From a virus (lineage: Duplodnaviria; Caudoviricetes): a stretch of DNA of 58,681 nt. The position numbers and the translations under genes are program-made. Below are positions 3,140 to 52,417 of the stretch, piece after piece (the first letter of the stretch is position 1; every line of letters starts with the position of its first letter). Location: positions 1 through 58,681 of the IMG/VR virus record IMGVR_UViG_3300023174_000189; one strand, written 5' to 3'. The notes under the pieces are model-generated. The model was given only the letters and a program-made list of their open reading frames with translations. It searched no databases and was not told the origin of the DNA.

Positions 3140-5986
3140 ATGTCATTTTCATCAATAGCGATATCTGCTAGTGCTAAAGCAGGTATACAATCTAAAGAAG
3201 ATGCTAATATCATTGAATTTGTAGAAGCCCCCTGGGGTCTAGGTATGACTTTATTCCCTGTTCAAAAAGTTATCCTTAAAGCACACTATGGTCTCGAACT
3301 CGATGATACTAATAAATTTAAAATCTCCGATTGGAGAAGAGAGAATTGGAAAGAAGTTACTGAGAAAGAATACCTTAAACATATTTATGACGAAGGTCGG
3401 TGTAATATAGGTGAAGTTATACCAGGTCATGAAAGAAGAGAAATGGTATTGTCGATTGGCAGAAGATCTGGGAAAACTACGATTTCTGCTTGTATCGCAG
3501 CATATGAGACCTATAAACTCATTAAGAAAACAGACCCCCAAGCATATTATGGTTTACCTGCAAGTAATAATATACAGATCATATCTGTCGCTACAGATAA
3601 AGACCAAGCAGGGTTGTTATATAATGAGGTGTCAGGTCACTTTAGAAATTGCTTTGCTTATGAAACAGAAGTAATTACCGATCAAGGTGTTAAGAAGATA
3701 GGAGATATTGCAGGAACAGAGCAAGTTCTCTTAACAAGAGATGGTAGTTGGGTTAAAGCACCTATACGATCTTTCGGTAAACAAAAGCTATATAAACTAA
3801 CCCTTATGAGACAAGGTGTTGTAAAAGAAATTTATACAACAGAAAACCATAGGTGGTATGCTAGAGATGCTAGAGCTAGATATAGGGGTAAAGGATTTAT
3901 AGAATTTACCACCTTAGACCTAAGAAAAGATAAGCATCGGCTTCAATCTGTATTCGGTCGTAGTTATAAGAACCGAATAGATGCTTCACCTTTTGGTATT
4001 GCACATGGATTTACTTATGGTGATGGCAGTACTAATAAAGGCATGAGAAATGCAAATGAAGTCCATTTAATTGGAGAAAAAGATAAAGCATTATTGCCTT
4101 ATTTCTCTATGTGTCCGATTAAAGAAAAAACATATATTAATGGAATTAAAGCATCTGCTTTACCTAATTTCTTTAGGGAACTACCTTCAATCAATGAGAA
4201 TAAAAGTTATTTATTGGGGTGGTTGATGGGTTATTTTGCAGCTGATGGGACTGTAAGTAATGGTCAGATAGATATGACTAGTGTCCATAGAAAGAACATT
4301 GAATTTTTTAGAGATGTTTGTATCTTGTTAGGGATCGGCACTTATGATATTAGGGAAGAAAAGAGAATCTCTAACCTTAATAATAAAGAGTTCACTATGT
4401 ATCGTATGAAGCTCATGCGACAAACATTAGATGAATCTTTCTTTTTAATCGAAAAACACAAGGAATCATTTTTAGGGGCAGGGGCAGAAGATGTAAAAAG
4501 AAAAGTTATTGAATGGGTTGTAAAAGATATTGAAGAAACAGATAGATATGAAGAAGTGTATTGTGCGACTGTGGAAGGGCATGGCAATTTTACTTTAGAA
4601 GGGAATATAGTAACAGGGAATTGTGCCTTCTTTGGGCCCTATACAGCAAACAACACACAATCGTATGCTCGTTTCCAAACACCTAAAGATGTAGAAAGAT
4701 ATGGTAGGTATATAGAAGACCCAACAGCCAAAGCGACCTTAAAGGTCACCTTTAGAAGTTGTGTCGCTAAAGGGCTTCGTGGTGCAGGTAATATTTGCGT
4801 TATCATGGATGAGATCGCCCACTTTACCGAAACAGGTCAAAGTGGTGCTGAAGAAGTCTATAATGCTGTTGTCCCTTCTACTTCTGCTTACTCACCTAAA
4901 GACCCCACTGATCGTAGAATCCCTGTTGGTCCTGTGGAAGGTCGTGTTATCTCTATTTCTTCACCTTTAGGTAAACAAGGTCTATTCTATAAGTTATTTA
5001 ATATCGGTATGCAAGGTGGTAAGGCTTCAAGTAATATGTTATGTGTACAAGCACCTACATGGGAAGTAAACCCCACTGTTCCTGCAACCGAATTTGAAAA
5101 ACACTATTTAAAAAACCCTACAGTATTCTTTACAGAATATGGTGGTGAATTTACAGATAGAACTCGTGGGTGGTTAGAAGATAGTAAAGATTTATATGCT
5201 TGTGTAAATCCTAAGAGAGTAGTTCAAGAAAGAGGTATACCTAGAAAACCATATTTTATGGGTATAGACTTAGCTTTAGTAGGTGACGGCACTGCTGTTG
5301 CTATTGGTCATGTGGAAGATGATAAGATCGTATTAGATAAGATAGATATGATTAAAGCAGGTGTGGGTAAATTTAGAGATAAAGAGAGATTAGATTTTGA
5401 TGATGTAGCAGATTGGGTGTTAGATTATACAAAGAAGTTTTATATAACTGAAGGAATATTCGACCAATGGGCAGGTATACCATTTGAACAAGCCTTAGCT
5501 AAAAGAGGGTTAAGTCAAATGAAAACAGTAAATATGACAAAGCAATTAACAAGTCAGATGTTTCAAAACTTTAAAGATATGATGTGGGATGAGAGATTGG
5601 ACTTGTATGATAAACCTAATCCTGATGTTAATGGGCATGAAGCATATTTAGAAGAATTGTTAGAGTTGCAACAGACAGTGCATAGTAAGAATTTAATCAC
5701 AGTAGAAGCACCGCAAGCAGATGGTAAGCATGACGATATGAGTGATGCTTTAGTGAGAATGATATGGATAGCGAGTCAAAATGTGGGGAGTAAGCAAAAG
5801 ACCATATATACAGCAGGTGGAAGTGGAGGTATGTATAGTCCTAGAAGAGGTGGAGAAATATATTTTGGGAGAACATCAAGTGCCCAGGGGTCATCGGTGG
5901 GAAGAATAGCACCTAAGGTACAAACAAGAGGTGGGAGTTTAAGAGAGAGTATATTAGGTAAGGGGGGATTTGGGAGAGGTAGATAA
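3140..5986 (+). CDS. terL: terminase large subunit (intein-containing)
   Basis: Walker A GRRSGKT, Walker B VIMDE, coupling ISSP, nuclease GIDLA and HDDMSD; upstream of portal; start placed at ATG 3140 after AGAGGTG. Confidence 0.92.
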   Translation: MSFSSIAISASAKAGIQSKEDANIIEFVEAPWGLGMTLFPVQKVILKAHYGLELDDTNKFKISDWRRENWKEVTEKEYLKHIYDEGRCNIGEVIPGHERREMVLSIGRRSGKTTISACIAAYETYKLIKKTDPQAYYGLPASNNIQIISVATDKDQAGLLYNEVSGHFRNCFAYETEVITDQGVKKIGDIAGTEQVLLTRDGSWVKAPIRSFGKQKLYKLTLMRQGVVKEIYTTENHRWYARDARARYRGKGFIEFTTLDLRKDKHRLQSVFGRSYKNRIDASPFGIAHGFTYGDGSTNKGMRNANEVHLIGEKDKALLPYFSMCPIKEKTYINGIKASALPNFFRELPSINENKSYLLGWLMGYFAADGTVSNGQIDMTSVHRKNIEFFRDVCILLGIGTYDIREEKRISNLNNKEFTMYRMKLMRQTLDESFFLIEKHKESFLGAGAEDVKRKVIEWVVKDIEETDRYEEVYCATVEGHGNFTLEGNIVTGNCAFFGPYTANNTQSYARFQTPKDVERYGRYIEDPTAKATLKVTFRSCVAKGLRGAGNICVIMDEIAHFTETGQSGAEEVYNAVVPSTSAYSPKDPTDRRIPVGPVEGRVISISSPLGKQGLFYKLFNIGMQGGKASSNMLCVQAPTWEVNPTVPATEFEKHYLKNPTVFFTEYGGEFTDRTRGWLEDSKDLYACVNPKRVVQERGIPRKPYFMGIDLALVGDGTAVAIGHVEDDKIVLDKIDMIKAGVGKFRDKERLDFDDVADWVLDYTKKFYITEGIFDQWAGIPFEQALAKRGLSQMKTVNMTKQLTSQMFQNFKDMMWDERLDLYDKPNPDVNGHEAYLEELLELQQTVHSKNLITVEAPQADGKHDDMSDALVRMIWIASQNVGSKQKTIYTAGGSGGMYSPRRGGEIYFGRTSSAQGSSVGRIAPKVQTRGGSLRESILGKGGFGRGR
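3650..4621 (+). mobile_element. intein with LAGLIDADG endonuclease in TerL (324 aa)
   Basis: Starts CFAYETEV, ends VYC...GNIVTGN followed by +1 Cys; internal GFTYGDG and GYFAADG motifs. Confidence 0.9.
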
Positions 5987-16624: not shown

Positions 16625-17242
16625 ATGGCTCTACTTGGACAAGCTAGTGGTGGTTTTACTGAAAGCAACAGTGCTTTGCGAATCCTTCATGTTGGTGTTC
16701 GTAATACTGTTACTCAGCTCGTTGCTGATGCTTTCACACAAACCAACCCTCCAGTTGTAACAACAGCAGTAACCGCTGCTGCAGGTTTCTCTGCAACAGT
16801 ATTTGGTGTATTGAGCGGTTCTATCGCTTTCACTAGATCTGATGCTGGTGTTGTTGGTGGTATCGGTGGTCCCGTTGAAGACAATGACAACGAAAGACCA
16901 CTTGGTATTTTCATCAATACAGCTAACGGTCTTGCTTTCACCAATCAACCTGGTGTTGCATCAAATCGTGGACCTTATGTTTCTGCACAAGGTACTTATG
17001 CTAACAAGCTCTATGAAACCAAGAACTTGAATAGCGGTCTTGGTCTTACTTATACTATCGGTGAAGAACTTTTAGCTTCTCGTAATGGTTATTTAACTAA
17101 TGTAGCAGATGGAGATAATTCTCATGATATTACATTACAATCAGGTCCAGCTAAGGTAGCAGATGCTTATTGGACTATCGGCATCTTGACAATTTCTCCA
17201 GACTCTAATTCAGACGAATTAGTTTATGACCAAAGAATTTAA
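16625..17242 (+). CDS. head decoration / minor capsid protein
   Basis: Immediately upstream of MCP; Gly/Ala/Thr-rich; RPLGIF, YTIGEELLASRNGYLT pattern; strong AGGAG SD. Confidence 0.65.
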   Translation: MALLGQASGGFTESNSALRILHVGVRNTVTQLVADAFTQTNPPVVTTAVTAAAGFSATVFGVLSGSIAFTRSDAGVVGGIGGPVEDNDNERPLGIFINTANGLAFTNQPGVASNRGPYVSAQGTYANKLYETKNLNSGLGLTYTIGEELLASRNGYLTNVADGDNSHDITLQSGPAKVADAYWTIGILTISPDSNSDELVYDQRI

Positions 17243-17256
17243 GGAGGATTGTTAAA

Positions 17257-18135
17257 ATGACAAATACAGTTGATAATGCAGTAAAACAAAAGATCATTTC
17301 TGATTACATCAAGACCCCACAAGGTCGTGCTAAATTAGCCGCTTCTATGACACAACCATTGCGTCTTAGAAGAGATTATACCTCTGTCGGTCGTAAGACT
17401 TTCTTGGTAGAACAATTACCTGATGGTGCTTTGCCAATCTATGACAAAGATCCTGATGTTACAGCTTTCGTAGTTGGTGAAGAAGGCGAAAACATTCTCG
17501 CTATTACTAAGCCACGCAGAGTTATTTTCCCTCTCTTTGAAATCGCTTCAAATCCTGAAATTCCTTTAACTCAAATTAAGGAAAGACGCTTTGACTTGAT
17601 CGAAAGAGCTCAAGATTTAGCTAGAGCTCAAATCCAAGCTGCAGAAGATGAAAGAGTATTCGCTATTCTTGATGCTGTTGCTACTCAAGGTTTTGATTCT
17701 CTTCCTGGTCAAACCAATGCTGATATTCCAGTTGTTGCTCCTTTAAATGGTGCTGTATTGGCTGATGCTTATTCTCTAATTGAAAGACATGATCTTCGTG
17801 TTGCTCGTGTATTCATGAACGCTCGTGATTATGCTGATATTAGAAAATTCGGTCGTGACATCTTGGACATCGAATCACAAGCATCATTATTGAAGACAGG
17901 TCTTCAAGCTACTCTTTGGGGTGCTCAATTAATCACCTCTCGTTTAGTTCCTGTTGGCACAGTATATGTATGTTGTGAACCAGAAATGTTCGGTCGTATC
18001 CCAGTTCGTACTGAATTGACCGTCCTCTCTGCTGATGATCCTAAAGCTCGTACAATCGGTTTCAGTGTGTTTGAGAATTTAGGTGTGGGCGCTTACAATC
18101 CTCGTGGTTTGGCTCGTTTGACCGTTACTCGTTAA
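17257..18135 (+). CDS. major capsid protein (short HK97 fold)
   Basis: AAGGAGG SD, highly biased codons, LAASMTQPLRLRRDY..GRK..LPDG N-arm and E.G.E / FEIASNP motifs; followed by strong terminator. Confidence 0.88.
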   Translation: MTNTVDNAVKQKIISDYIKTPQGRAKLAASMTQPLRLRRDYTSVGRKTFLVEQLPDGALPIYDKDPDVTAFVVGEEGENILAITKPRRVIFPLFEIASNPEIPLTQIKERRFDLIERAQDLARAQIQAAEDERVFAILDAVATQGFDSLPGQTNADIPVVAPLNGAVLADAYSLIERHDLRVARVFMNARDYADIRKFGRDILDIESQASLLKTGLQATLWGAQLITSRLVPVGTVYVCCEPEMFGRIPVRTELTVLSADDPKARTIGFSVFENLGVGAYNPRGLARLTVTR

Positions 18136-18165
18136 TAGTTAAAACCTCGATTTCTTGGGACTTAG

Positions 18166-18207
18166 AAAACCCCAATGTCTTTTTTAGGCATTGGGGTTTT
18201 TTATTTT
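18166..18207 (+). terminator. Rho-independent terminator after MCP
   Basis: aaaaccccaatgtct / aggcattggggtttt stem followed by T tract. Confidence 0.85.
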
Positions 18208-18220
18208 GTGCTAAAAAAAC

Positions 18221-18249
18221 TTGCACCACACTCCTTGTTTTAATATAAT
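18221..18249 (+). promoter_or_regulatory. sigma70-type promoter for the LAGLIDADG gene
   Basis: TTGCAC-N17-TATAAT, then AGGAGG SD. Confidence 0.7.
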
Positions 18250-18270
18250 ATAAATACAAGGAGGACAAAA

Positions 18271-19200
18271 ATGAAAAAGATACCATGTCCAATTACATCT
18301 GAAAGATTATCAGAGTTATATACTAAAGAATTTCTAACCGATGAAAAGATAGCCGAACTATTATGTTCAGAGGGTTATGAAGCAACTAAAAAAAGAGTTC
18401 TCAGATGGAGAATCGATTTCAATATTCAAACCCTAAAACAATATGAGAGATTTACACCCCCACCTATTGAAGGTGAATTGAAATCCTTATTGATAGGAAG
18501 TATGTTAGGTGATGGTCGTATAGCATTTAGAGCAAATTCTTCACATTATGAAGAAAGACATTCTCCTGAACAATTAGACTATTTGAAATGGAAAGCTAAC
18601 ATTTGGGGTGAATGGTCTAGTGGTGAGTTGAGTGTTGCTTATAGTAGAGAATTTGCAAGTCATATCTTTAGAACTAAAGCACATACTGATCTTAACCCAT
18701 ATAGAGATTTATTCTATGCTCAAAGAGAACATGGGTGGAAGATTGTTAAGAATGAACTTGTAGATATGGTAGACCCATATGCTTTAGCTATATGGTATTT
18801 AGATGATGGGTGGGCAGGTCATTACCCTGCTATATCATTTGGTGCTAAAGGAGAAAGCAGAGGTAATGTCTATCTTATCTTTGAGAAGTTTGGATTAAGA
18901 CCTAAATGGAAAGTAAGAAAAGGTGAAACAGGGGAGTTTCATTTTGAGAAAGAAGAAGGAGATAAGTTTATAGAGATTATTAAACCTTATGTGCCTGAGT
19001 GTATGAATTACAAGATGACCTTTGCTTATAGGGATGGGAAGATTAATGCTGTTGCTAGGAAGATGAAGAGAGAGGTGATCGAAGAGATGGTAAATAAAGG
19101 GTATACTTATGAGATGATGAGCAAAGAATTAGAAGTGGGAGAGGGGACTATAGGAAGATGGTTAAAAAAGTTTGATTTAAAGACAATTAATAGTAGATAA
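18271..19200 (+). CDS. free-standing double-motif LAGLIDADG homing endonuclease with terminal HTH-like regions
   Basis: LIGSMLGDGRI and ALAIWYLDDG; QLDYLKWK; IIKPYVPECMNYK; C-terminal EMMSKELEVGEGTIGRWLKK. Confidence 0.85.
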   Translation: MKKIPCPITSERLSELYTKEFLTDEKIAELLCSEGYEATKKRVLRWRIDFNIQTLKQYERFTPPPIEGELKSLLIGSMLGDGRIAFRANSSHYEERHSPEQLDYLKWKANIWGEWSSGELSVAYSREFASHIFRTKAHTDLNPYRDLFYAQREHGWKIVKNELVDMVDPYALAIWYLDDGWAGHYPAISFGAKGESRGNVYLIFEKFGLRPKWKVRKGETGEFHFEKEEGDKFIEIIKPYVPECMNYKMTFAYRDGKINAVARKMKREVIEEMVNKGYTYEMMSKELEVGEGTIGRWLKKFDLKTINSR

Positions 19201-19203
19201 AAC

Positions 19204-19320
19204 TTGCATAAAAAAGAATATTCTTATAATCTAAGGATAGACAGACTCATGTGTGTGGCTGTTTGTTTTGTTTAGAATGAAAGGGGTGGTATTAATTTAT
19301 CATCCCTTTTTTCTTTTTAA
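19204..19320 (+). ncRNA. candidate small RNA unit 1 (promoter-hairpin-terminator)
   Basis: TTGCAT with TAATCT (17 bp) or TATAAT (15 bp); GU-rich stem 19234-19269; terminator aaaggggtggta/tatcatcccttt + T tract; no ORF. Confidence 0.45.
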
Positions 19321-19440
19321 TTGACATTAAAAAAGAGATAGGATATTTTCTTTAATCTAAGACCTTAGGTTCTGTCCTTTCTTACTAAGGTCTTAAAGTG
19401 AAGGGGTATGAGATTATTTTTTCATACCCCTTTTTTATTT
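19321..19440 (+). ncRNA. candidate small RNA unit 2 with anti-SD loop
   Basis: TTGACA-N17-TATTTT; perfect 11-bp stem taagaccttag/ctaaggtctta with CU-rich loop; terminator aaggggtatga/tcatacccctt + T tract. Confidence 0.6.
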
Positions 19441-19524
19441 AATGTAAAAAAGTAATTGTATAATGCTTATAAATGAATGTATATAGAATACATATATACT
19501 AAACAATAAAGAGGAGTATCCTTT

Positions 19525-20586
19525 ATGTCAGATATTAATTTTTTTAAAGGAACTTTTGTAAAAGTTCAAGCGACAACAACAATCCACTTAGGTAAATTAG
19601 AAAGAAATCTTTATCAAGGTGATATTGTTGAATATGATGGTGTGACTTTAAAGATTGGAAATGAACAAGTTGTAATGCCTGAATTGAAATCAGGTGTAAA
19701 AAGAGGTTGGTTAAAGATTGTAGAAGAAGTATCTACACCTGTAGATACTAATACACCTGTAGTAGTTAAGAAAGAAACAACACCTGCACCTGCTAAGAAA
19801 GAAATGGCTGTTCAAAAAGTATATGACGAAGAAAAGTCAGTACAAAATTTAAATAAGAAAGCTGTGGAAGAACCTAAAAAATTCCCCTTGAAGATTGAAT
19901 CTCAAGATGAAGATGTTAGACCAGTACATAAGGTAGACAATAAGAGTGGAGCTACAGTAACAGGTGCAACAAGTGCAATGGATAATGTAAGTTCACAACA
20001 AGGTGCTGAAGCTGTTAAGATTCCTTTAAAGACAGCAAGTAAGCAAAAGTTAGTAATTTCTGACGGTAGTCAAATTACAAAAGAAATGGCTAAGTTAGAG
20101 AATCTTTCAAGAGATGCTGTAAAGAAGCCTGTTGTAATTGTAGATGATCAACAAGAACCTAATGTAGTAAGTAAAGTAGGACAAGAAGCTACTGTAGAAG
20201 TAGATGAGTTTGAAGATTTACAATTAGGTGAAGAACAATCAGGTGAATTAGAAGTATCTATTGAAGAACTATCTGATATTATCAATAGTGATTTAGAAGA
20301 ATTAGATTTATCTGGTGAAGAACCTGCAGTAAGTCAATTTGAAGAAAACTTACAAACATTAAATGCTTTAGAACAAGTAACACCTACAGGTGCAGTGATT
20401 ACAGGTGCAGATACAAGTAAAGTTGTAAGTGTAGATGGTATTGATTGGGATAAATCAAAGCATTGGCAACATCGTGTAAAGTTAGCGATTGAAAAGTATA
20501 AAGACAATCCTGAGATGATGGACAAGATTAAAGCGATTGAAACTGAAGGTGTAGTAAAGGCTATTGATAAGGCATTAGGTCAATAA
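19525..20586 (+). CDS. hypothetical acidic protein, post-capsid region
   Basis: GAGGAG SD; 353 aa, compact N- and C-terminal ends with low-complexity middle. Confidence 0.7.
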   Translation: MSDINFFKGTFVKVQATTTIHLGKLERNLYQGDIVEYDGVTLKIGNEQVVMPELKSGVKRGWLKIVEEVSTPVDTNTPVVVKKETTPAPAKKEMAVQKVYDEEKSVQNLNKKAVEEPKKFPLKIESQDEDVRPVHKVDNKSGATVTGATSAMDNVSSQQGAEAVKIPLKTASKQKLVISDGSQITKEMAKLENLSRDAVKKPVVIVDDQQEPNVVSKVGQEATVEVDEFEDLQLGEEQSGELEVSIEELSDIINSDLEELDLSGEEPAVSQFEENLQTLNALEQVTPTGAVITGADTSKVVSVDGIDWDKSKHWQHRVKLAIEKYKDNPEMMDKIKAIETEGVVKAIDKALGQ

Positions 20587-20668
20587 TATATAGTTTATAG
20601 TGGGTTAATATTTAATTTATATAGGTCTAATATATATATATATCTTTAACCTTATGTGGAGTTTACAC

Positions 20669-21526
20669 ATGAACGCACAAACTTTAAATCGTATGATCAA
20701 AGCATCATATTATGCACCCAATGGTGCTCAATTAAGAAAAGCCTGTTATGGGGTTATGGCAGTAAATAGCCGTAGAGCTTCCGTAGGTGCTATGTCTTTA
20801 GAACAAGTAGCAGAATTACCAAAAGAAGAACAAACTGAAGTAAAGTCTCAAATTGTTCAAGAAGCATTAGTACAAGGTTCAGCAGAAGACCAAGCTAAAT
20901 TAGCAGGTCATGGCTTAAAAAATGTACAAATGTACTTAAAGCAAGAAGGCGTAACACCTGAAGAACTCGCTAAAGAAGTTCAAAAAGCTGATCCTGTAAT
21001 TGTAAAAGCAATTAAGTCTGAAACACATGACTTAAAAGGTGCTGTTCAAGTTGCTGGTGCTATTGCTAAAGCAGGAACATTTGAAGAAATTTTTAGTTTC
21101 TTAGATATTCCTATCAATTATGTTCAAAGAAAATACCAAGATTTCAATTGGTTTAAATGGTCTGCTATTATTGGTGCTATTGGTTTCATGTTTGAAATCA
21201 TTGGTGCTGGTAGTGTAGCTGGTCTAAGTGGTGGTTTGATCGCTTTGACTGCTATTATTGGTGTAGCAGGTTATGCAGCACTAGCTCTTGTTATTTATTA
21301 TTTGTTTGGTGATATTATCAAATGGGTTAATAAAAGACTTGCTATGTTAGATGCTTGGGTCTTCTTATTGCCCTTTAGAGCTTTAAGTTTAATCTTAAAG
21401 CTATTCGGTTGGGGTTTAGATCAATTTGTAGGTGGCATTAAAGATGCTTGGAATAGCTTCTTTAGTCGCCAAGCAAGTATTGCTATGCAATCACCTGAAT
21501 TTAGAAAAGTTTATTATAGTATTTAA
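20669..21526 (+). CDS. membrane protein with head-protein-type motifs
   Basis: Start MNAQ at 20669 (GGAG SD); Gly/Ala-rich hydrophobic hairpin; RRAS near N-terminus and RQAS near C-terminus. Confidence 0.7.
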   Translation: MNAQTLNRMIKASYYAPNGAQLRKACYGVMAVNSRRASVGAMSLEQVAELPKEEQTEVKSQIVQEALVQGSAEDQAKLAGHGLKNVQMYLKQEGVTPEELAKEVQKADPVIVKAIKSETHDLKGAVQVAGAIAKAGTFEEIFSFLDIPINYVQRKYQDFNWFKWSAIIGAIGFMFEIIGAGSVAGLSGGLIALTAIIGVAGYAALALVIYYLFGDIIKWVNKRLAMLDAWVFLLPFRALSLILKLFGWGLDQFVGGIKDAWNSFFSRQASIAMQSPEFRKVYYSI

Positions 21527-21945: not shown

Positions 21946-23259
21946 ATGGATAGATATGCTTATCGAGCACCTGCACAAGATTTAGCAGGTGTTAAGACAT
22001 GGGTAGAAAAAGAAAGAGCTAAAGGAACAGCACCTGAAAAAGGTAGAGAACAATATGAGGATGGAAAACCTCAAAGAGATAGAGTATTGCCTTTACCTAG
22101 TGGTCATCCTAAAGGAAGAGATGTAGAGAAGTATGCACCAGGTGCTATGAATACACCTAGTGATAGTCAAGATAGTCCTTTAAAACCATCTCATTCTTAT
22201 GCTAAGTCTAATAAACCTATGGGTAAGCCTTTACATGAATCACCTAGAACAACAGGTGTTCCTGGTGAACAATATGGTCATCCTTATATAGATATGGGAA
22301 CTATTGTAAATCAAAGAAGAACAATGACAGCTAGTGAGGATGATATTGTCATGGGGGATATTAATTTTAGAACACACCCCCAATATACAGATAGACAAAG
22401 AAACCAACAAGGTGAAGCTAAGAGATATTATAAGCGATGGTATAGAGAAAATAAGAGAAATGTTAAGAGAAGAATGAGGAAATATAATAGAGAGAATAGG
22501 GTGGATATAAAGAGATATAATAAGAAGAGAAATGATAAGCCTGAAAAACATACAAGAATAAAGCCCTTTGGTGTTCGTTCTATGAAAGAAAGAAACAAAG
22601 AAGCTATGGCTATAAGAGTAGCAAGTATGTATATAGAAGCTAGACCTAAAACAGGGCCAGGTAGTCATAGTGGTCCAGGGGTTAAAAGAAGAAAACCTAT
22701 GAGAGGTATGGCTAAACTTAAAGCTAAACAAAGTTATATTCGTAATAAGATAGATCGTTTGAAATATCAAAAACACTACTACAAAAAAAACAAAAGGAAA
22801 ATACAGATGTATCGTAAAGCAAGTTCCGACAAGTTAATGTACTTACAAATGTTATTGAGTGGGTTAAGAGCTGCTCACTTCGCACATTGGACTACACATT
22901 GGCAAGTACAAGGTCAATCATCTTATGGAGATCATTTACTTATGGAAAGACTATATACAGGACTAGTAGATGAGATTGACACCTTAGCTGAAAAGCTAGT
23001 AGGTGAATTTGGTCCAGGTGCTGTTGAACCTGAAAGTCAAGTAACTCAAATGTCTGTCTATATTAAAGGTTTAGTTAATTTAGAACAAGACCCCATTTAT
23101 AGAGCAATGTTAGTAGAAGAAGGCTTACAACAATTATTCACTTATGTATATAATAAACTTGAAGGACAAATGTCATTAGGTTTAGATGATTATATTATGA
23201 GTACTGCTAATGCCCATGAAACTAATGTTTATTTGTTAAGACAAAGGACAAGTAAGTGA
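21946..23259 (+). CDS. polyprotein-like: Pro-rich + highly basic segments + C-terminal Dps/ferritin-like domain
   Basis: C-terminal HWTTHWQVQG...HLLMERLY...EIDTLAEK matches the Dps ferroxidase pattern; two Arg/Lys/Tyr-rich helices upstream. Confidence 0.72.
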   Translation: MDRYAYRAPAQDLAGVKTWVEKERAKGTAPEKGREQYEDGKPQRDRVLPLPSGHPKGRDVEKYAPGAMNTPSDSQDSPLKPSHSYAKSNKPMGKPLHESPRTTGVPGEQYGHPYIDMGTIVNQRRTMTASEDDIVMGDINFRTHPQYTDRQRNQQGEAKRYYKRWYRENKRNVKRRMRKYNRENRVDIKRYNKKRNDKPEKHTRIKPFGVRSMKERNKEAMAIRVASMYIEARPKTGPGSHSGPGVKRRKPMRGMAKLKAKQSYIRNKIDRLKYQKHYYKKNKRKIQMYRKASSDKLMYLQMLLSGLRAAHFAHWTTHWQVQGQSSYGDHLLMERLYTGLVDEIDTLAEKLVGEFGPGAVEPESQVTQMSVYIKGLVNLEQDPIYRAMLVEEGLQQLFTYVYNKLEGQMSLGLDDYIMSTANAHETNVYLLRQRTSK

Positions 23260-23923: not shown

Positions 23924-23968
23924 TTTATAAAGAGGTATATATAAAATTTATATAAACAAGGATAGAAA

Positions 23969-25417
23969 ATGTTAAATAAAGTAGCTAGACTTCTTTTAAA
24001 AGAGATTAGAAATAAAGCACCTGAAGCTAGATTAAAAAAGATAGCTAAAGTGTTATTTAAAATAGCATCCGCTAGTGCTTATAAAAGTGAAGTTATAGAT
24101 AATTTTATCAAAATGTTTGTTAGTGTAAATGCTTCAGACCTTAGTTTTATGATTTCACAATATGCTTTAGGTAAAAGATTTCATAGTGGTGACATCGCTA
24201 AAATAAAAACAGACTCTGTGGATGTTTCTTTAAAAGTTAGAGTATTGAGAGAAGCACTTTCTAATCCTAAAATATCTGTTTATGAGATAGCAAATATAGC
24301 AAATGATCTTATTGAAAAGAATATCAATATTAAGAATGGATTAAAAACTGTAATCACAAGCTATAAAAATTTAGCACCTGTTAAAATAAACTCAAGAGAT
24401 GGAAGTAAATATACTTTTAACTTTTCAGGAACAGATCACTTTGCTCATAGAATTTACTTAAGAGGAATAAGTAAAAAAGAATTACATAAAGCATTATCTG
24501 ACCTTTGTTTAAATTTAATAGAGAATCCTAATTCTATACTTCAATATAAGACTCAAGATATATATGGTGATAGTATAGGTGATAAATATAAAGTCACCAC
24601 CAAAGTGAGAAAATTAAGCACAGATATGTATATCACCTTAGTGTTTGGTATCAAAACATTAAATAACTTAGGTGGTGAACTTGTATTGATTACTGCCTAT
24701 CCTGAAGATAAAGAACCATCTATTAAAACTGTAACTTCTGACTCTTATTTTGTAGATGAATATGTAGAACCAAAAACCACTACAGATGATGAAGTTATTG
24801 AACAATATAATCAATACCTACAAAGAAAAATATCACCTGTACAAACCCCTACCGTAGAAGAAAGACCATCTAGAATAATTGAAAGAAGAAGAGAAGCACC
24901 TACCCCTGAACAACTCTTCTTAGCTAAGAAACCTACAGGTGAGGGTACTAGTTCTCTACTTTATTGGAAACCTATGTATAAAGGATCTAAACCTGAACAT
25001 AATGAATATGGTAATCTTCTCATCACCTATCCTAAAGAACTTAAATATGCTATAGGCGAACTAAACTTTAATAGAGTACTTAATCGTGTAGGTATTCTCT
25101 TAAACCTATGGTATATTAAAAAGAGCTTTGTAGCAAAAGTACAAATCCCTTGTGCTGAATGTAGAGATCTTGAAACAGGTATGAGTACAAGTCCTTTTGT
25201 TTATGTCGTATTAAGATTAAATAAAGTATTTAATGACCCCAATAATCCTAAAGCAGGTTATTCTTACAATATTGATGCCTTTAACATCAAAGAGTCTGAG
25301 AATAAGATAGATCCTGCTTATCATTATAGTCTTGAAACTAGAGATAGTATTCCTGTCCCACCTCCTGCCCCTACACCTAAAACAGCTAATTATTTATACA
25401 GCCCATATATATGGTAA
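23969..25417 (+). CDS. probable internal head protein with a DUF4258/RelE-like central domain
   Basis: Basic leader KVARLLL...KIAS; TDHFAHRIYLRGIS ... LVLITAY pattern. Confidence 0.5.
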   Translation: MLNKVARLLLKEIRNKAPEARLKKIAKVLFKIASASAYKSEVIDNFIKMFVSVNASDLSFMISQYALGKRFHSGDIAKIKTDSVDVSLKVRVLREALSNPKISVYEIANIANDLIEKNINIKNGLKTVITSYKNLAPVKINSRDGSKYTFNFSGTDHFAHRIYLRGISKKELHKALSDLCLNLIENPNSILQYKTQDIYGDSIGDKYKVTTKVRKLSTDMYITLVFGIKTLNNLGGELVLITAYPEDKEPSIKTVTSDSYFVDEYVEPKTTTDDEVIEQYNQYLQRKISPVQTPTVEERPSRIIERRREAPTPEQLFLAKKPTGEGTSSLLYWKPMYKGSKPEHNEYGNLLITYPKELKYAIGELNFNRVLNRVGILLNLWYIKKSFVAKVQIPCAECRDLETGMSTSPFVYVVLRLNKVFNDPNNPKAGYSYNIDAFNIKESENKIDPAYHYSLETRDSIPVPPPAPTPKTANYLYSPYIW

Positions 25418-25822
25418 ATCACCTGACACACCTTTAAACATATCTCTATAATAGTCAGGCTTCTTTTTTATTAAATTACTTTGATGACTCATATGTATAT
25501 CCTCCCTTCCCCACCAATTAGGTTTATTCCTATTCTTACTGAATAATAAACCCACCTCAAATCTCTCTTTAAGAGTATCTTTATAACCTAAAGAAATCCA
25601 TTTATTACATATAGCAATAGCATATTCACATAAAGCACCTTCATAACCTTCCCACATTTTTACAGCAGGGTGATTAAACCATGCACCTTTTACCACACCC
25701 CTCTTCTTTGCATATAACACTTTTAAGATTTGATATGCTTCTACTCTCTGTTTACCTAATCTTTGCCTATCTAAAGCATTTGCTATTTCTTCATAGCTTT
25801 TATATGGAATGAATGTTTGCAT
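25394..25822 (-). CDS. pyrimidine-dimer DNA glycosylase-like (MSMEG_6728 / DenV-like) protein
   Basis: MQTFIPY, LDRQRLGKQRVEAYQI, NHPAVKMW, SHQSNL; start moved to ATG 25822 behind AAAGGA. Confidence 0.8.
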   Translation of the reverse strand: MQTFIPYKSYEEIANALDRQRLGKQRVEAYQILKVLYAKKRGVVKGAWFNHPAVKMWEGYEGALCEYAIAICNKWISLGYKDTLKERFEVGLLFSKNRNKPNWWGREDIHMSHQSNLIKKKPDYYRDMFKGVSGDLPYIWAV

Positions 25823-25920
25823 TTTTTTATCTGTCCTTTCTATGTTTTTATTATATTTTTTATAAGGACTTGTATAGTTAAAATCATTAAATTGAACCCC
25901 TTCAAAAAGGATAAATGTAA

Positions 25921-27938: not shown

Positions 27939-30779
27939 ATGGAGAAATATAAAATGTTAGAATTTTCAGATCATGCTATTAGTCTACTAGAAAACTATTA
28001 CATGATGGATGACGAAAAAACCCCTTCAGAAGCATTTAAACGAGCTTCTGATGCCTTTTGTGGTGGAGATAAAGAATTAGCTAGTCGTATTCTCTCTTAT
28101 GTAGAGAATGGGTGGTTTATGTTCTCAAGTCCTATCTTATCTAATGCTAGACTAGAAGGACAAAAGAAATCAGGTCTTCCTATTTCTTGTTTCTTAACCT
28201 ATGTAGATGACTCTCTCGAAGGTCTTATCTCTCATAGTGAAGAATTAAGATGGATGAGTGTTATGGGAGGTGGTGTAGGTGGTCATTGGTCTAATGTTAG
28301 ATCAGTATCAGATAAAGCACCTGGCCCTATTCCTTTCATTAAGACGATTGACAGTGATGTCGAAGCTTATAGACAAGGTAAAACTCGTAAAGGTAGTTAT
28401 GCTGCATATATGGATGTCTCTCACCCTGATATTATTGAGTTCCTAAATATTCGTGTACCCACAGGTGGAGATACTAATAGAAAGTGCTTTAATCTCAATA
28501 ATGCTGTTAATCTCACAGATGCTTTTATGACAGCTGTAGTAGAGAATAAAGAATGGAACTTAATTGACCCCCATACTAAACAAATTAAAGAAACAGTACA
28601 AGCAAGAGAACTTTGGCAAAGAATTTTAGAAGTTAGATTTAGAACAGGTGAACCCTATTTCTTTTTCAGTGATACTGCTAATAAGCATTTACCCCAACCC
28701 TTAAAAGACAAAGGGTTGAAAATTCATGGTTCAAATTTGTGTATTGCTGGAAGTGATAGGGTTGTAACCAATAAAGGCTATTTAACAGCTAAAGAGCTTT
28801 ATGATCTTGGTGAAGAACTTGAAGTGTTTGATGGCACAGCAAGTCAAAAAGCAACAGCTATGCAATTAATTGAAAAAGATGTTGCAACATATAAAATCAC
28901 TTTAAAGAATGGTTTAGAACATACGGTGACAGGCTACCACAAGATTAAAACTGAAAAAGGCGATATTGCTTGTGATGATTTGAAGATTGGCGATAGAGTA
29001 TTTATCCAAAGTAATAAAGGTCTTTTTGGCACGATCAATATGGAAGATGAAGCATTTCTACTTGGTCAATATCATGCTGATGGTACTCAATATCAAGACA
29101 TTATTATGCTTGATTTATGGGAAGATGATTTTGATCTTGTGCTAGAGATAGAAGAAAGATTTGCTCGTGTACATAAGAAATATGGCTGTGATACCTATGA
29201 AGTCAAGAATCAACATGGTACTGTTTGTACACGAGGAAGAGAACCTGCAGTATTCACCAACTGCACCGTAAATCAAAGCACTGTCGCTAAGAAAAGACTA
29301 GCATCAAAAACTTTAAAGAAAGCCTTAGATTTCACCAAAGCTACAATACCCTATTGGATATGGGAATCAGATGAAGCGACACAGTGGCAATATGTAAGAG
29401 GTTTATTTTATGCTGATGGTACGGTTAGTGTCGGTGGTGGTAAAGGTGAACCTATTTATCTATCAATCACCAATGTCAATTTACCATTTATCAAAGAGCT
29501 TCAAATTCTGCTTAGAAACTTGGGTATGCCTTTTTCTTTGCATATTTCAGCTGAAGAGGGAATGAAGTTAATGCCAGATGGTCGTGGTGGATACAAAGAA
29601 TATGCTTGTAAAACAGCCTATCGCCTAGTCTGTGGGTCTAAAAATGCTTGTTTAGTCTTTGAAGAGAAAACAAACTTCTTAACTAGAAGAGGTGTCAATA
29701 TAGAAAATAAAGTGTGGAGAGATAATAGTCGTAAGGTATCTGAAGTTATTAGTATTGAATATGCAGGACATCAAGATGTTTATTGCCTAACTGTTGATTC
29801 AAAAGAAAACCATTTTGTGTCTAATGGCTTTATTACTCACAACTGCAATGAGATTTTTTTGGCGACAGATAAAGATAGAAGTGCTGTATGTTGCTTATCT
29901 AGTCTTAATGTAGAATATTTTGATGAATGGAAGAATACCTCTATTGTAGAGGATTGTATTACCTATTTAGATAATGTCTTACAATACTTTATAGACAATG
30001 CCCCACAACCACAAATGAAAAGAGCAGTATACTCAGCTATCCAAGAACGATCTTTAGGTTTAGGTGCTATGGGTTTCCACTCTTATCTACAAAGAAAGAA
30101 TATAGCATTTGAATCACCTATCGCTAAAGGTGTAAATAAGAAAATCTTCTCTCTTATTAAAGAAAGAGCAGTTAAACAGACTGAACTCTTAGCTAAAGAG
30201 AGAGGTGAGTATTTAGATGGTGTTGGTTATGGTAGAAGAAATAGTCATTTATTAGCTATAGCCCCTAATGCCAATTCGGCTATTATTTTAGATACCTCAC
30301 CAAGTATTGAACCCTGGAAGTCAAATGCTTTCACCCATAGAACAAGAGCAGGGGCTTTTTTATCTAAGAATAAGTATTTAGATAAGATTCTCTTAGATAA
30401 GAATATGCCTAAAGAAGAATATGATGCTATATGGCAATCTATTATTTTGAATCAAGGGTCAGTACAACATTTAGAGTGTTTAACTGACTATCAAAAGGCT
30501 GTGTTTAAGACAGCATTTGAATTAGATCAAATGTGGTTAATTGAACATGGTGCAGATAGACAAGAGTTTATCTGTCAGGGTCAGTCATTAAATCTCTTTT
30601 TCCCTGCAGGGAGTGATAAGGCATATGTAAATGCAGTACATTTAATGGCTTGGAAAAAAGGATTAAAGGGATTGTATTATTTAAGAACAAGTACAGGTGT
30701 GGTAGCTGAAAAGGTATCCACCAAGATAGAAAGAAAAGCTCTTAAAGACTATGATGAGTGTATCGCTTGTCAAGGGTAA
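27939..30779 (+). CDS. nrdA: ribonucleotide reductase class I alpha subunit (intein-containing, no ATP cone)
   Basis: SSPILSN, ISCFL, GGGVG, SNL|C..N|CNE, CCLSS, LGLGAMG, IAPNA, KGLYY, C-terminal CIACQG; start may be ATG 27954. Confidence 0.95.
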   Translation: MEKYKMLEFSDHAISLLENYYMMDDEKTPSEAFKRASDAFCGGDKELASRILSYVENGWFMFSSPILSNARLEGQKKSGLPISCFLTYVDDSLEGLISHSEELRWMSVMGGGVGGHWSNVRSVSDKAPGPIPFIKTIDSDVEAYRQGKTRKGSYAAYMDVSHPDIIEFLNIRVPTGGDTNRKCFNLNNAVNLTDAFMTAVVENKEWNLIDPHTKQIKETVQARELWQRILEVRFRTGEPYFFFSDTANKHLPQPLKDKGLKIHGSNLCIAGSDRVVTNKGYLTAKELYDLGEELEVFDGTASQKATAMQLIEKDVATYKITLKNGLEHTVTGYHKIKTEKGDIACDDLKIGDRVFIQSNKGLFGTINMEDEAFLLGQYHADGTQYQDIIMLDLWEDDFDLVLEIEERFARVHKKYGCDTYEVKNQHGTVCTRGREPAVFTNCTVNQSTVAKKRLASKTLKKALDFTKATIPYWIWESDEATQWQYVRGLFYADGTVSVGGGKGEPIYLSITNVNLPFIKELQILLRNLGMPFSLHISAEEGMKLMPDGRGGYKEYACKTAYRLVCGSKNACLVFEEKTNFLTRRGVNIENKVWRDNSRKVSEVISIEYAGHQDVYCLTVDSKENHFVSNGFITHNCNEIFLATDKDRSAVCCLSSLNVEYFDEWKNTSIVEDCITYLDNVLQYFIDNAPQPQMKRAVYSAIQERSLGLGAMGFHSYLQRKNIAFESPIAKGVNKKIFSLIKERAVKQTELLAKERGEYLDGVGYGRRNSHLLAIAPNANSAIILDTSPSIEPWKSNAFTHRTRAGAFLSKNKYLDKILLDKNMPKEEYDAIWQSIILNQGSVQHLECLTDYQKAVFKTAFELDQMWLIEHGADRQEFICQGQSLNLFFPAGSDKAYVNAVHLMAWKKGLKGLYYLRTSTGVVAEKVSTKIERKALKDYDECIACQG
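28740..29843 (+). mobile_element. intein with LAGLIDADG endonuclease in NrdA (368 aa)
   Basis: CIAGSDRV ... VTGYH ... GQYHADG, GLFYADG ... ITHN|C; the +1 Cys is the NxCxE catalytic Cys. Confidence 0.92.
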
Positions 30780-44621: not shown

Positions 44622-45164
44622 CTACCTACACTTATCCATATACTTCTCATATAATGAAATATATTTAGACTCTTGTCCTTTCTTTTTACTCTTCCTATAT
44701 TTATTTATCTCTGTTTCTAATAATAAACACCCTGCCTCAGACATAGATTTACTCTTACTCTCTTCTTGTTCTTTTTGCTTTTCATATTCTTGGTCTTGCT
44801 TTTCTCTTTCTTCCCTTGCTCTTTGCCTCATTTTTTTATCTTGTATTTTCTTCTCCTCATCAAATTTTTCTTGGAGAATCCGTTTCTTCTCTCTTAAAGC
44901 GTTCAAATCAAAAGGATATTGTTGTATTATATTAGAATATTGCTTATTTATGTCTCTCGTACAACCAAGTTCTCCCAAAGAATCATCTCTTGAACCGTAA
45001 TATTCTTTACACTCTTCTAGAGCATCTACCCTTTTTTGCAAATCAGCTTTCCAAATAGTCTCAGCCTTGTCTAATTCTTCTGTTACCGAAATTAACTGTT
45101 CTTCTAAAGGTTCTTGGCAATATCCCCATGATAACAAACATAATACAAAAAATAAAACTTTCAT
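44622..45164 (-). CDS. secreted coiled-coil hypothetical protein
   Basis: Signal-peptide-like MKVLFFVLCLLSWGYC; E/K-rich helices; AAGGAG SD. Confidence 0.6.
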   Translation of the reverse strand: MKVLFFVLCLLSWGYCQEPLEEQLISVTEELDKAETIWKADLQKRVDALEECKEYYGSRDDSLGELGCTRDINKQYSNIIQQYPFDLNALREKKRILQEKFDEEKKIQDKKMRQRAREEREKQDQEYEKQKEQEESKSKSMSEAGCLLLETEINKYRKSKKKGQESKYISLYEKYMDKCR

Positions 45165-45266: not shown

Positions 45267-45304
45267 GGATTATACAAACACACTAACTATCACAAAGGAC
45301 AGAT

Positions 45305-48300
45305 ATGTTAAACAATTATCTTAAAGACTTGCAAACAAGACAAGCACAAAATGGCTCAGAATACTCTTATAGAGCAGACTTAAGACAAATCCTAAAAGGT
45401 TTAAGTATCACTGACGAACCTAAAGGTAAGAAAAAAGATAAAGTCGATATGGAAGTTTTTACTCCCGAAGGTCTTGTCTCTTTCTATATTGAAACTAAAG
45501 ACTTAGGCGAAGACCTCAGCCATAAGAAACATCAAGATCAATTCAATAGATACAAGTCCGCATACAAAAAACTCGTTATCACAAATTTTCTCGACTTTGA
45601 ATTTTATCGTGATGGTGTCTTACTAGGTAAATGCACTCTTGCCGATCTTAAATCATTCACAGGCAGTCAAGCTGACTTCGATCAATTCAATAACTTTATT
45701 GATGATTTTAAGAATGATTGTATCCAATTCACTAATCCTATCTTACTCGCTAAAAAACTCGCTGAGAAAACTAAATTCCTAAAGAATGAGATTTTTACAA
45801 CTCTTGAAAAAGATGATGCTGAAATTGCTTTAGGCAGTAAAAAGAATTTTAAACTCGTTGCCTATCGTAATGAATTTAAAAAAATGCTCCTCAATGATAT
45901 TGATAACGATCAATTCGCTGATCTCTATGCTCAAACAATCACCTATGGTTTATTTGCTAGTAGATACTATTCTTTTCAAAAAGATTCTAAAGCTACTTTT
46001 AAACGATCCGATGCCTCTGATCTTATCCCTAATACAAATCCTTTATTAAAGCAATTCTTTGATTCTATTAGTAGAGATAGTAAATCTTCTTCTTTAGGTA
46101 AAAATATCACTATTCATTTAGATGGAATTACTACTATCCTAGCTAATGCGGACATGACCCAAATTATTCAAAATTTGAAATTAGCTAACAATGATATTGT
46201 TATTCACTTCTATGAAACCTTCCTAGAACATTATGACCCAGCATTAAGGGCAAGTATGGGTGTATGGTATACTCCTGTTGAAGTAGTGGATTATATTGTT
46301 AAAGGTGTAGATAGTATTCTCAAGGACAAGTTTTCTATCAAAGATGGTATTTCATCTAGAGAAACACAAGACTTCTCATTTATTAGAAAAACTAAAGTTA
46401 AAGGTGGTGAGAAGACTGAGGAGGTAACTAAAAAGGGGGTACATAAAGTTCAAATCTTAGACCCAGCTACAGGCACAGGTAATTTCTTAAATTCCACTAT
46501 CAATTACATTAAGTCTAATTTTAAACACCCTACCTTATGGAAGGAGTATGTTAATAATCACTTGATCCCTAGATTAAATGGTTTTGAGTTAATGATGCCT
46601 TCTTATGTTATGGCACACATGAAGATGTATGAATTGTTAAAAGACTCTTTAGATGATAATCTATCTAATAGGTTTAATGTATATTTAACAAACACCTTAA
46701 ATGGTGGTGTTGTCTTAGAAGAAGAGAATGTTTTATCTGTGAGTGATTTAATACATCAGTTAAATGAAGAAGCATTAGGAGCTAATAGAGTAAGACAAGA
46801 ACAACCTGTGATGGTGATCATGGGCAACCCACCTTATAATAGTGCAAGTAAGAATCAAGGTGAGTTTATTACTGATCTTATGGAAGACTATCAAGATGTG
46901 AGTAAAAATACAGGAATTACTTTAAATGATGACTATATTAAATTTATTAGATATGGACAACACCTCATCGACCAAAATAATAGTGGGGTTTTAGCTTATA
47001 TTTCTAATAATAGCTTCCTTAAAGGAATCTCTATGGGGAAAATGAGAAAATCACTATTGAAGACTTTTGATGAAATTTATGTCCTTAATTTATATGGTCG
47101 CCCTATTGATGATAATATTTTTAAAAGTATCAAACAACAAGTTTGTATCACTTTCTTTGTTAAGACAAACAAGAAAGAACAAAACGAATTAGGTAAAGTC
47201 TTTTACTTTGAAATTAAAGGAGATAGACAACCTAAGTTGGACTATCTTGAAAAAAACACGGTGAATAATGATTTTAAAGAAATTGCTTTGATTGAACCTG
47301 AATATTACTTCATCCCACAAGACACTAGTATCCTTGAAGTATACAATAAAGACAGCTTCCGTTTAGATTCTATTTTCAAGTTTAAATCTAATGGTGTTTT
47401 AACAGGTTGTGATAGCTTACTAATAGATACTGATTTAGGGAGATTAGAAAATAAATTAAAAAATTATTTTGCTACAAATAAAAAAAAGGGAGTTTCTTCA
47501 ACAGATGACGGTCACTTTAAAAAAGTAAACTATAGAAATTTTGATACAAGACACTATTTTGATAGTGCTTTATCGAGTGCTAGAAAAGAAGAATTGGTCA
47601 AACATTCATTAGCATCAAAACAAATCTTCTTATCATACAAATCTTATTGTCGTGACAAGTTTGACTTCAAACATATCTTATTAACAAATAGGACTCCAGA
47701 CTATAACTTTTTGGGGGCATCGGCAGGATCAATCCATTGCTCTCCTCTCTATCAATACCACGAAGGAAACACTGTTTTAGGCACAGAACCATACCAAACC
47801 TCTAACTTCACTCAAGACTTCCTAGACCAAATCTCCCTCAAAATCGGTAAACTCTTTAATGATAACCCCACCGATGATACTACTTTCTCTTCCCTCGATG
47901 CTATGGATTACATCTATGGCTACCTTAATGATAAATCCTACACCACTACCTATAACCAATTCCTTAAATCTAACTACCCCAAAGTCCCTTTCCCCACTGA
48001 CCTTAACCACTTTGAAACCTATAGATTAAAAGGTGAAACCCTTAGAACTATCCACCTCGATGACTCTACAATAGACCCCACCTCTAACTTCACCGCTAAA
48101 AGCAACACTATCTCTAAGGTCTCTTTCGACCCCACTGATAATAAACTCTACTTTAACAAGACTAGCTACTTCGATAATATCACTAATGATATGTGGAATT
48201 TCAAAATAGGTGCTAGTCAACCACTTAAAAACTGGCTCGAAGCTAGAAAAGATGATGACTTAACTGAGAGTAGTGTTGATGAATTTCTAAATGTTATCTT

Positions 48301-48322: not shown

Positions 48323-48517
48323 AGAACTTATCTATATCTCCTTGTTTTTATACAAACCATCGCCAAAATCTATAAAATCAACTTTGAAGATAAACACCTT
48401 CACCACCTCTTCCAAAAAACTGCCTCTTCCCTACCATCAGAAGATGCCACTATCAAAGACCTAGACTTCTCCGTCCTTAATCAAACATGGGACTTTATCT
48501 CTAATACCTATTATTAA
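48323..48517 (+). pseudogene. start-less 64-codon open frame homologous to the C-terminal tail of 41819..44170; in frame with the R-M gene across its TAG
   Basis: QTIAKIYK...KTASSLPSEDATIKDLDFSVLNQTWDFISNTYY vs QTIARINK...KFASDKNLMDDPMIREVDFAILDQVWDGINKLY. Confidence 0.7.
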
Positions 48518-49808: not shown

Positions 49809-49997
49809 TTTATCACTTCTCCTATATGTTCTTATATAATCCTATAACCCTATAATCTTTCACCTTATAAATAATTAACCCCCTTTCATTTCCACCCCAA
49901 AAATTTTCACCCAAAACTAATTTTCACTTTCACTTTTTACAACTCTCAAAAAAACAAGCCCCCCCTTATATAACCCCCCCCCTCTGGAGAGATACCC

Positions 49998-52316: not shown

Positions 52317-52417
52317 TTATATCTTCCCTTGTTTTTGAGATAAATCCTATCTATACTATACATACAATTAAAACGGATTTTAAGATAAATGAGAATAGCC
52401 TATATAAAGACATATGC

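Follow-up and report, generated by a model that had tools for sequence, protein, structure and literature searches.

Downstream of the capsid gene of a huge, uncultured freshwater phage, in the spacer between a homing endonuclease gene and the next gene, lies a hairpin followed by a terminator (hereafter the hairpin B element), which we are highly confident is a real, selected, structured RNA of the plus strand. The loop of the hairpin is very probably the selected and functional part of the element, judging from its conservation among related loci, and the hypothesis that fits the evidence best, to which we assign a probability of roughly 0.4, is that the RNA acts in trans by blocking Shine-Dalgarno (SD) sequences. 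Its discrete transcription, its pairing and repression in vivo and the identity of its targets are what we infer from this genome comparison. The element matches no described RNA family and is a candidate for a new family of phage small RNAs (sRNAs).

Results

Source and gene content of the fragment

The window, by which we mean the whole stretch of DNA analyzed, is one contig of 58,681 bases with a CheckV completeness of 15% and a G+C content of ~32%. The capsid protein encoded at 17257-18135 shares 90% identity with that of an uncultured 485-kb phage and 38% with that of Bacillus phage G. Complete records of 316, 375 and 312 kb are found among the close relatives in IMG/VR, and the window is therefore a piece of a huge phage from aquatic metagenomes. 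Freshwater phages of comparable size and G+C content are described in the bS21-phage paper (PMC9723584). No ribosomal-protein family was matched among the 50 window proteins, and a tRNA/tmRNA search of the window found none. Pfam and PHROGs named a portal, a terminase-like gene with an intein, a prohead protease, the capsid protein, a ribonucleotide reductase, a RecD-like helicase and ThyX, as well as the following genes:

18271-19200: free-standing LAGLIDADG endonuclease
25394-25822, minus strand: pyrimidine-dimer glycosylase (Pyr_excise)
45305-48322, plus strand: N6-methylase/Type ISP-like gene (N6_Mtase/Type_ISP_C), 1005 aa

The earlier note on this DNA had described the last two, its proposed sRNA targets, as DNA-cutting enzymes. 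This label is loose, since one is a glycosylase and the other carries methylase and specificity domains, with no nuclease domain detected by Pfam or PHROGs.

Several other features of the fragment are recorded here in their own right. The free-standing LAGLIDADG gene 3' of the capsid gene varies among close relatives (L037/L041 vs L038/L040 and L067 vs L072, where L numbers denote related loci), with a clean presence/absence junction that leaves the small-RNA cluster unaffected, and intein/LAGLIDADG signatures also occur within the terminase-like gene (3140-5986) and the ribonucleotide reductase large subunit (27939-30779). Positions 48001-50000 show a strong local composition anomaly (G+C 0.386, GC skew -0.73) that overlies a 435-aa minus-strand ORF (48501-49808) without a Pfam family. 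The ~1.5 kb at 52380-53810 contain no convincing gene and many short direct repeats, with CTATAAGACTATAT-like and CACCTATAAATTCTATC-like units at 52400-52660 and TTTAGGT occurring more than 10 times at 53570-53810, spaced about 20-25 nt, and look like an iteron/origin-type region or a regulatory array.

Architecture of the spacer and of the hairpin B element

The 324-nt spacer between the endonuclease gene and gene 19525-20586 holds two tandem small units, followed by the downstream gene's own promoter:

19204-19310, plus strand: unit 1, the upstream small transcription unit, with TTGCAT -35 and TATAAT, a hairpin, and a terminator at 19279-19310
19321-19349, plus strand: sigma-70-like promoter of unit 2, TTGACA (19321-19326), 17 nt, TATTTT (19344-19349)
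19358-19395, plus strand: hairpin B, a perfect 11-bp stem (19358-19368/19385-19395) with an open 16-nt loop (19369-19384)
19373-19383, plus strand: conserved, anti-Shine-Dalgarno-like loop core UGUCCUUUCUU, the proposed seed
19400-19439, plus strand: intrinsic terminator of unit 2, a 14-bp G+C-rich stem (19400-19433, 5 G-C pairs), then a T-run
19457-19464, plus strand: extended -10 TGTATAAT, a conserved motif, separate promoter of gene 19525-20586

The promoter, 11-bp stem, 16-nt loop and terminator are all present at the positions claimed by the earlier note. The promoter-like site of unit 2 agrees with the consensus at 10 of 12 positions and has a 17-nt spacer, and the start predicted from it, near 19355-19357, falls at the base of the stem. 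Folding of 19355-19440 as RNA gives a minimum free energy of -35.6 kcal/mol (z = -6.8), with none of 200 shuffles as stable, and no ORF of at least 30 aa lies over the element. Hairpin B has no U-tract and is therefore not a terminator itself; the sequence after it is AAAGUG, and the terminator scan passed it over, with only 19400-19433 qualifying. A search of the whole window against Rfam 15 at gathering thresholds gave no match, the best sub-threshold score over 19150-19560 being that of PyrR (24.8 bits vs a 54-bit cut-off), and a limited literature search found no such RNA described in huge phages.

Unit 1 has a promoter spacer of only 15 nt in the window and a hairpin whose 3' arm is GUUUGUUUUGUUU. 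Its cTTGCA -35 and the invariant TGTTTGTTTT (GUUUGUUUUGUUU) motif are kept in all eight aligned relatives, in some of which the neighboring protein is merely 59-60% identical, and its conservation is wider than that of hairpin B, extending to relatives that lack the latter (copies lie at L038:6080-6200, L067:1782-1900 and L083:2766-2932, among others). A small peptide encoded in unit 1 (AAGGA, 11 nt, then ATG and 8 codons; 19234-19251) was considered and rejected, as SD and ATG are both lost in L213/L204. The downstream promoter lies in a block, GTATAATGCTTATA, that is kept in L037-L041, L204-L207 and L213.

The element in related loci

A capsid search of IMG/VR returned 573 relatives, from which 80 loci were kept, and a search with the downstream protein added nine viral and 11 metagenomic loci. 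The same element occurs in eight related metagenomic loci, where it lies 3' of the capsid gene, or of its homing endonuclease, and 5' of the next gene, so that comparison of the spacers by eye yielded nine copies of hairpin B: the window, L204, L213, L206, L207, L037, L041, L038 and L040. The hairpins of the window, L204 and L213 are identical, and L037 and L041 (copies at L037:3089-3183 and L041:2470-2564) are near-identical contigs from different samples. The copies have three to four distinct stem sequences, namely …UAAGACCUUAG… (the window group), …AAGCUAUCUAC… (L037/L038/L040/L207, among which A-U vs G·U differences occur) and …AAGCCAUUUACC… (L206).

A covariance model (R1) built from L206, L207, L037, L038 and L040 only was searched against 77 sources comprising 749,483 bases. 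Besides the window, these were 76 loci, namely 65 of the 80 capsid loci, L083, L084 and nine of the 11 downstream-protein metagenomic loci; the 15 capsid loci omitted are short or have little or no sequence 3' of the capsid gene. The nine top matches are the nine copies, all at one intergenic position. The window, which is absent from the model, scored 43.2 bits (E 5e-6 in 749 kb), and R1 also recovered L204 and L213, neither of which was used in building it. The other 25 of the 34 matches listed are minus-strand echoes, a cut terminator in L205, unit-1 terminators and weak matches in the L067/L072 group (at most 27.7 bits). No R1 match was present in any of five large relatives (195-375 kb), and the element is therefore restricted to a narrow sub-clade.

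Homology of the hairpin was detectable by eye and by the covariance model only. By blastn, 19150-19560 found no match in 50,697 phage records, and the spacer aligned to the 80 capsid loci only in its terminator/next-promoter portion, in four loci; the exact 38-nt hairpin pattern had no match in IMG/VR. A 14-nt promoter pattern hit more than 114 unrelated contigs and was uninformative, and a gapped loop-plus-terminator pattern hit 11 loci, two of which belong to L038 and L040. The remaining nine were rejected as hairpin B homologs and taken as chance matches, because none of them reached an R1 E value of <= 0.01.

Stem covariation and loop conservation

In an alignment of the nine copies (eight distinct rows) that was fitted to the model structure, and in which independent stem types number just three to four, 97.4% of cells pair and both sides have changed in 21 of 25 pairs; compensatory changes are found in 11 of 12 pairs of the hairpin helix (helix 1) and in 10 of 13 pairs of the terminator helix (helix 2). 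None of 500 shuffles matched the observed measures, and slid partners paired at 39-52%. The window, L204 and L213 are nearly identical in the right half of the spacer and therefore count as one. A five-sequence MAFFT alignment, which was not model-fitted, contained two compensatory hairpin pairs and several G·U variants. The G·U and U·G pairs of helix 1 correspond to A·C mismatches on the opposite strand, and minus-strand R1 matches are far weaker than plus-strand ones, which together show that the plus-strand RNA is the selected molecule. On the same grounds we rejected a minus-strand RNA and a DNA cruciform, and the idea that the hairpin is a homing-endonuclease target site was set aside because the junction between endonuclease-bearing and endonuclease-free loci lies ~300 nt upstream of it.

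The 11-nt loop core UGUCCUUUCUU is identical in seven of the nine copies, across three to four unrelated stems, and the loop is unpaired in all folds, including those of the longer L204 and L206 transcripts. The earlier note had counted conserved stems with an unconserved loop as evidence against its proposal; we found the reverse, namely that the stems have been rewritten with compensation and the loop core has been kept. The exception is the pair L037/L041, whose core reads UGUCGUUUCUU, a single C-to-G change in mid-core that abolishes the match to the SD GGA. The loop variants are …UUCUGUCCUUUCUU… in the window, …UUCUUGUCCUUUCUU… in L038/L040/L206/L207 and …GUCGUUUCUU… in L037/L041 (the segments other than the window's being …CUUGUCC… and …GUCGUUU…), to which ribosome-binding site (RBS) sequences GGACAGA, GGACAAG and AACGACAAG, respectively, would correspond.

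Hairpins that are recognized by proteins likewise typically combine a conserved loop with a stem that is free to vary, and the element could instead be a protein-binding RNA (an operator, a decoy or a recruitment site), in which S1, an RNA chaperone or translation factor, or a phage protein reads the pyrimidine loop and mRNA pairing is not the mechanism. This explanation, which we consider unlikely, would also accommodate the finding that five of eight loci have the element without a promoter of its own, and it gains from the likeness of the loop to eight nucleotides of the 16S rRNA 3' tail, which is protein-bound in some bacteria (PMC7797042). A loop of 16-19 nt with an invariant 11-nt run is long for a protein operator, however, and such a reading leaves aside that exact complements of 10-12 nt lie precisely on two RBSs. 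Furthermore, the flanking genes have no Pfam/PHROG family except for the homing endonuclease, and no candidate binding protein was found among them.

Transcription of the element

In the window, L204 and L206 (three of eight distinct loci), a TTGACA-17 promoter lies directly 3' of the unit-1 terminator. The five other distinct loci (L213, L207, L037/L041, L038 and L040) have no such promoter, and the hairpin there is expected to be part of a longer RNA or a read-through product. In L207, a strong terminator without a following sigma-70-like promoter precedes the hairpin, which would require read-through or an unrecognized promoter, while the preceding hairpin in L037/L038/L040 has no T-run, so that a single ~200-nt RNA is expected. 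In two metatranscriptome runs, which contained 0.05-0.07 of the sampled words, contigs over 17000-21000 reach only 17134-18205, over the capsid gene, and none covers the spacer. In L204 (905-985) and L206 (1052-1120), but not in the window, the TTGACA promoter is separated from hairpin B by an extra hairpin A; that of L204 has a large purine-rich loop (…AAAAGAAAGAGAGAA…) which is partly complementary to the hairpin B loop.

These arrangements bear on a further explanation, according to which hairpin B is a module of a longer multi-hairpin transcript, or a cis-acting leader or insulator between the highly expressed capsid operon and the downstream late genes, that tunes read-through, processing or stability and does not act on remote mRNAs. 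That L213, L207, L037/L041, L038 and L040 have no promoter separating unit 1 from the hairpin is what such a module would predict, as is the additional hairpin within unit 2 of L204 and L206, and both the wider conservation of unit 1 and the co-directional arrangement of all units with the flanking genes are in line with it. We nevertheless regard it as distinctly unlikely, given that a conserved extended -10 promoter past the terminator separately serves the downstream gene and that hairpin B, for want of a U-tract, does not terminate by itself. The invariant 11-nt loop would be left unexplained, and pairing of the loop with the 5' arm of the terminator is unconserved; a pseudoknot or antiterminator formed in this way was rejected for that reason, L213, L207 and L206 having no AAGG.

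Similarity of the loop to the anti-Shine-Dalgarno sequence

For comparison with the 16S rRNA 3' tail we relied on the oligonucleotides as printed in PMC7797042, an anti-SD-sense oligo, ACCUCCUUUCU, and a model SD oligo, AGAAAGGAGGU. The loop core has UCCUUUCU (8 nt) in common with the former, and its complement has AGAAAGGA in common with the latter. As the loop is anti-SD-like, matches to RBSs are to be expected, and a complement to AGAAAGGA is to be expected at any SD-like site; by comparison with these printed oligos, likeness to SD and anti-SD sequences alone accounts for eight of the 12 matched bases discussed below, so that only the 3' CAGA is specific. The loop has UGUCC in place of the CCUCC of the printed 16S tail, and canonical GGAGG sites therefore mismatch. 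The phage makes heavy use of SD sequences: when the window genes were read by eye against the ORF lists, 32 of 50 had AGGA 4-11 nt 5' of the ATG, followed by G in 17, T in nine, A in three and C in three; of these, G mismatches the loop (G opposite G), C pairs with it and T pairs through G·U.

A reading that takes this likeness as the purpose of the element is that the loop is a deliberate copy of the 16S 3' tail (UCCUUUCU) and the RNA an anti-SD mimic, which would titrate AAAGGA-type SD sites globally, on host or phage mRNAs, or decoy the proteins that handle the 16S tail. If true, a huge phage would re-program which mRNAs initiate during infection; we hold this reading to be improbable.

Candidate target sites

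The sites of the window with the best pairing to the loop are as follows:

25830-25841, minus strand: glycosylase RBS AGAAAGGACAGA, candidate target 1, a 12/12 complement of loop nucleotides 19371-19382, 8 nt before the ATG
45294-45303, plus strand: methylase-gene RBS AAAGGACAGA, candidate target 2, 10/10 complementary to the loop, 1 nt 5' of the ATG of 45305-48322
23958-23967, plus strand: RBS of gene 23969-25417, AAGGAUAGAA, candidate target 3, 10 bp including one G·U
44671-44684, minus strand: non-RBS complement of the loop core, AAGAAAGGACAAGA, in the 3' part of ORF 44622-45164 (minus strand)

The first two, which the earlier note had reported for the glycosylase and the restriction-modification (R-M) gene, are present as given; the third was not among its sites. 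At the coding-region site, 44674-44684 (minus strand) form a 10-11-nt complement of the window's loop core, with 11/11 positions paired (11 bp), which is as good a match as those at the RBSs. AGGACA does precede 18271, 23261 and 51633, as the earlier note had also claimed; loop pairing amounts to 8 bp at the 23261 RBS and to 6 bp at each of the other two.

In the window, exact AAAGGACAGA was observed three times vs 0.20 expected (0/100 shuffles), exact AGAAAGGACA three times vs 0.21 (0/100 shuffles) and AAGGACAG three times vs 1.7 (26/100 shuffles), one copy in each case being the loop itself, and both non-self copies of AAGGACAG are at RBSs. With one mismatch allowed, AAAGGACAGA was observed eight times vs 6.3 expected (35/100 shuffles), and AGGACA occurred 35 times vs 26.6 (5/100 shuffles). 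By hand estimate, the CAGA continuation is found at two of 11 AAAGGA-type RBSs vs ~0.04 or fewer expected, and a conservative null, in which the two RBSs share an 11-mer for another reason, gives p ~0.03. That the glycosylase and methylase/R-M RBSs have CAGA in common is by our own reckoning suggestive, at the ~1-3% level after post hoc choice.

The weakest of the general alternatives is that the element has no sequence-specific function, being a structural hairpin in a terminator-rich spacer whose RBS matches arise by chance from SD-like composition. The enrichment is indeed weak once mismatches are allowed, one loop complement lies within a coding region, and the match was chosen post hoc from a 16-nt loop; the fully compensatory rewriting of the stem around an invariant loop core would be unexpected without selection, however, and the flanking spacer sequence is unalignable by blastn; we see little probability in this explanation.

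Returning to SD blocking, the regulon that the earlier note had defined by an extended AGGACA(GA) SD survives in part. For the glycosylase and methylase genes it is plausible, which we put forward as a tentative and rather doubtful reading of the RBS matches, while the case for the other AGGACA genes is weak, 18271 and 51633 offering 6 bp of pairing. Several points weigh against the regulon: AGGACA is weakly enriched, a promoter of the element's own is present in three of eight distinct loci, and L207, a relative with the hairpin, has an ordinary AAGGAG site at its 23261 ortholog; the last also counts against 23261 as a conserved target.

Target sites in relatives

The hairpin-bearing contigs are 3-28 kb long and end short of the glycosylase and methylase genes; in the L040/L041 records, a glycosylase search turned up nothing more than a C-terminal fragment, at the end of a contig. 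The short L041 and L207 contigs contain no further complement of the loop that each encodes, and a search for AAAGGACA in all hairpin-bearing loci, which are likewise short contigs, found no complement. In relatives that lack the hairpin, the glycosylase ortholog of a 316-kb record (56% identity) has …AAAGGAAAAU… and the methylase/R-M ortholog of a 195-kb record (63% identity) has …AAAAAGACAUG…, with the loop match missing from both. Absence of the hairpin would thus seem to coincide with absence of the RBS match, on one case each.

Two sites in the window match the loop of relatives better than its own loop: AAGAAAGGACAAGA (44671-44684, minus strand) is a 14/14 complement to the L038/L040/L207 variant (…CUUGUCCUUUCUU…), and AAAGGACAAG (23243-23252, plus strand), at the 23261 RBS, is a 10/10 complement to the same variant. 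These two matches may be due to chance or may be the trace of an older pairing between loop and target.

Discussion

We propose that 19356 to ~19439 encodes an ~85-nt RNA made up of a long hairpin with a 16-nt pyrimidine loop and an intrinsic terminator, in which the loop would be the working part and which would most likely act in trans. Pairing of the loop core UGUCCUUUCUU with purine-rich RBSs of the form (AAG)AAAGGACA would mask the SD sequence and exclude 30S subunits. The loop would outcompete 16S rRNA at sites where its match reaches further than the rRNA can pair, such as the RBSs of the glycosylase (12 bp), of gene 23969 (10 bp, one G·U) and of the methylase/R-M-like gene (10 bp), whereas ordinary AGGAG sites would mismatch the loop. 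As ~85% of the phage genome lies outside the fragment, targets may also lie elsewhere.

To our knowledge, the regulatory RNAs of virulent and huge phages are nearly unexplored. According to one review, the phage sRNAs known so far are mostly those of temperate enterobacterial phages (PMC12197685). Here, comparison alone yields a candidate with covariation support and a testable seed, in a clade of ~300-kb freshwater phages with 573 capsid relatives. Should blocking of RBSs be borne out, huge phages would be using RNA to schedule or restrict their DNA-repair and DNA-modification enzymes, and the supposed interference of such phages with translation initiation would gain an RNA component. Otherwise, the element is still a new structured RNA family that is worth a model.

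Several known systems resemble the hairpin B element in part. RsaE/RoxS and the C-rich loops of S. aureus RNAIII are examples, from SD-rich bacteria, of sRNAs that occlude SD sequences with a loop seed. Like these, hairpin B would be a short RNA with a terminator hairpin, in which an unpaired pyrimidine-rich loop seed faces a purine-rich SD and the seed is the best conserved part. In contrast to them, its seed is U/C-rich (UCCUUUCU) and not UCCC, and it is encoded by a huge phage and not by a bacterium; nor is there sequence or model similarity, the RsaE model scoring 14.4 bits vs a 79-bit cut-off, on the wrong strand. With the anti-SD tail of 16S rRNA, in the printed form used above, the loop has UCCUUUCU in common and like it would pair with the AGAAAGGA part of extended SDs, but the hairpin B sequence is presented in the loop of a small RNA, while the 16S tail is a free 3' end inside the ribosome.

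Among phage RNAs, the closest parallels are c4 and DicF. The CI RNA of phage P4 is a case related to c4. In the c4 antisense RNA of phages P1 and P7, as outlined in the same review, loops pair around the RBS of phage genes and block translation (PMC12197685). The c4 RNA, as it is presented there, is similar to hairpin B in being a phage-encoded small RNA whose function depends on complementary bases shown in loops, but differs in that it acts on its own operon in temperate phages, where it controls immunity, and in that it uses a pair of loop seeds and arises by processing of a longer transcript. The candidate targets of hairpin B, by comparison, are 6 and 26 kb away, and the c4 Rfam family stays below its cut-off here. 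Finally, DicF of the Qin prophage is, in the account given by that review (PMC12197685), a trans-acting sRNA of phage or prophage origin that pairs at an mRNA initiation region and blocks translation, as we propose for hairpin B; its target is the host ftsZ, it is processed from an operon transcript, and it shares neither sequence nor structure with the element described here.
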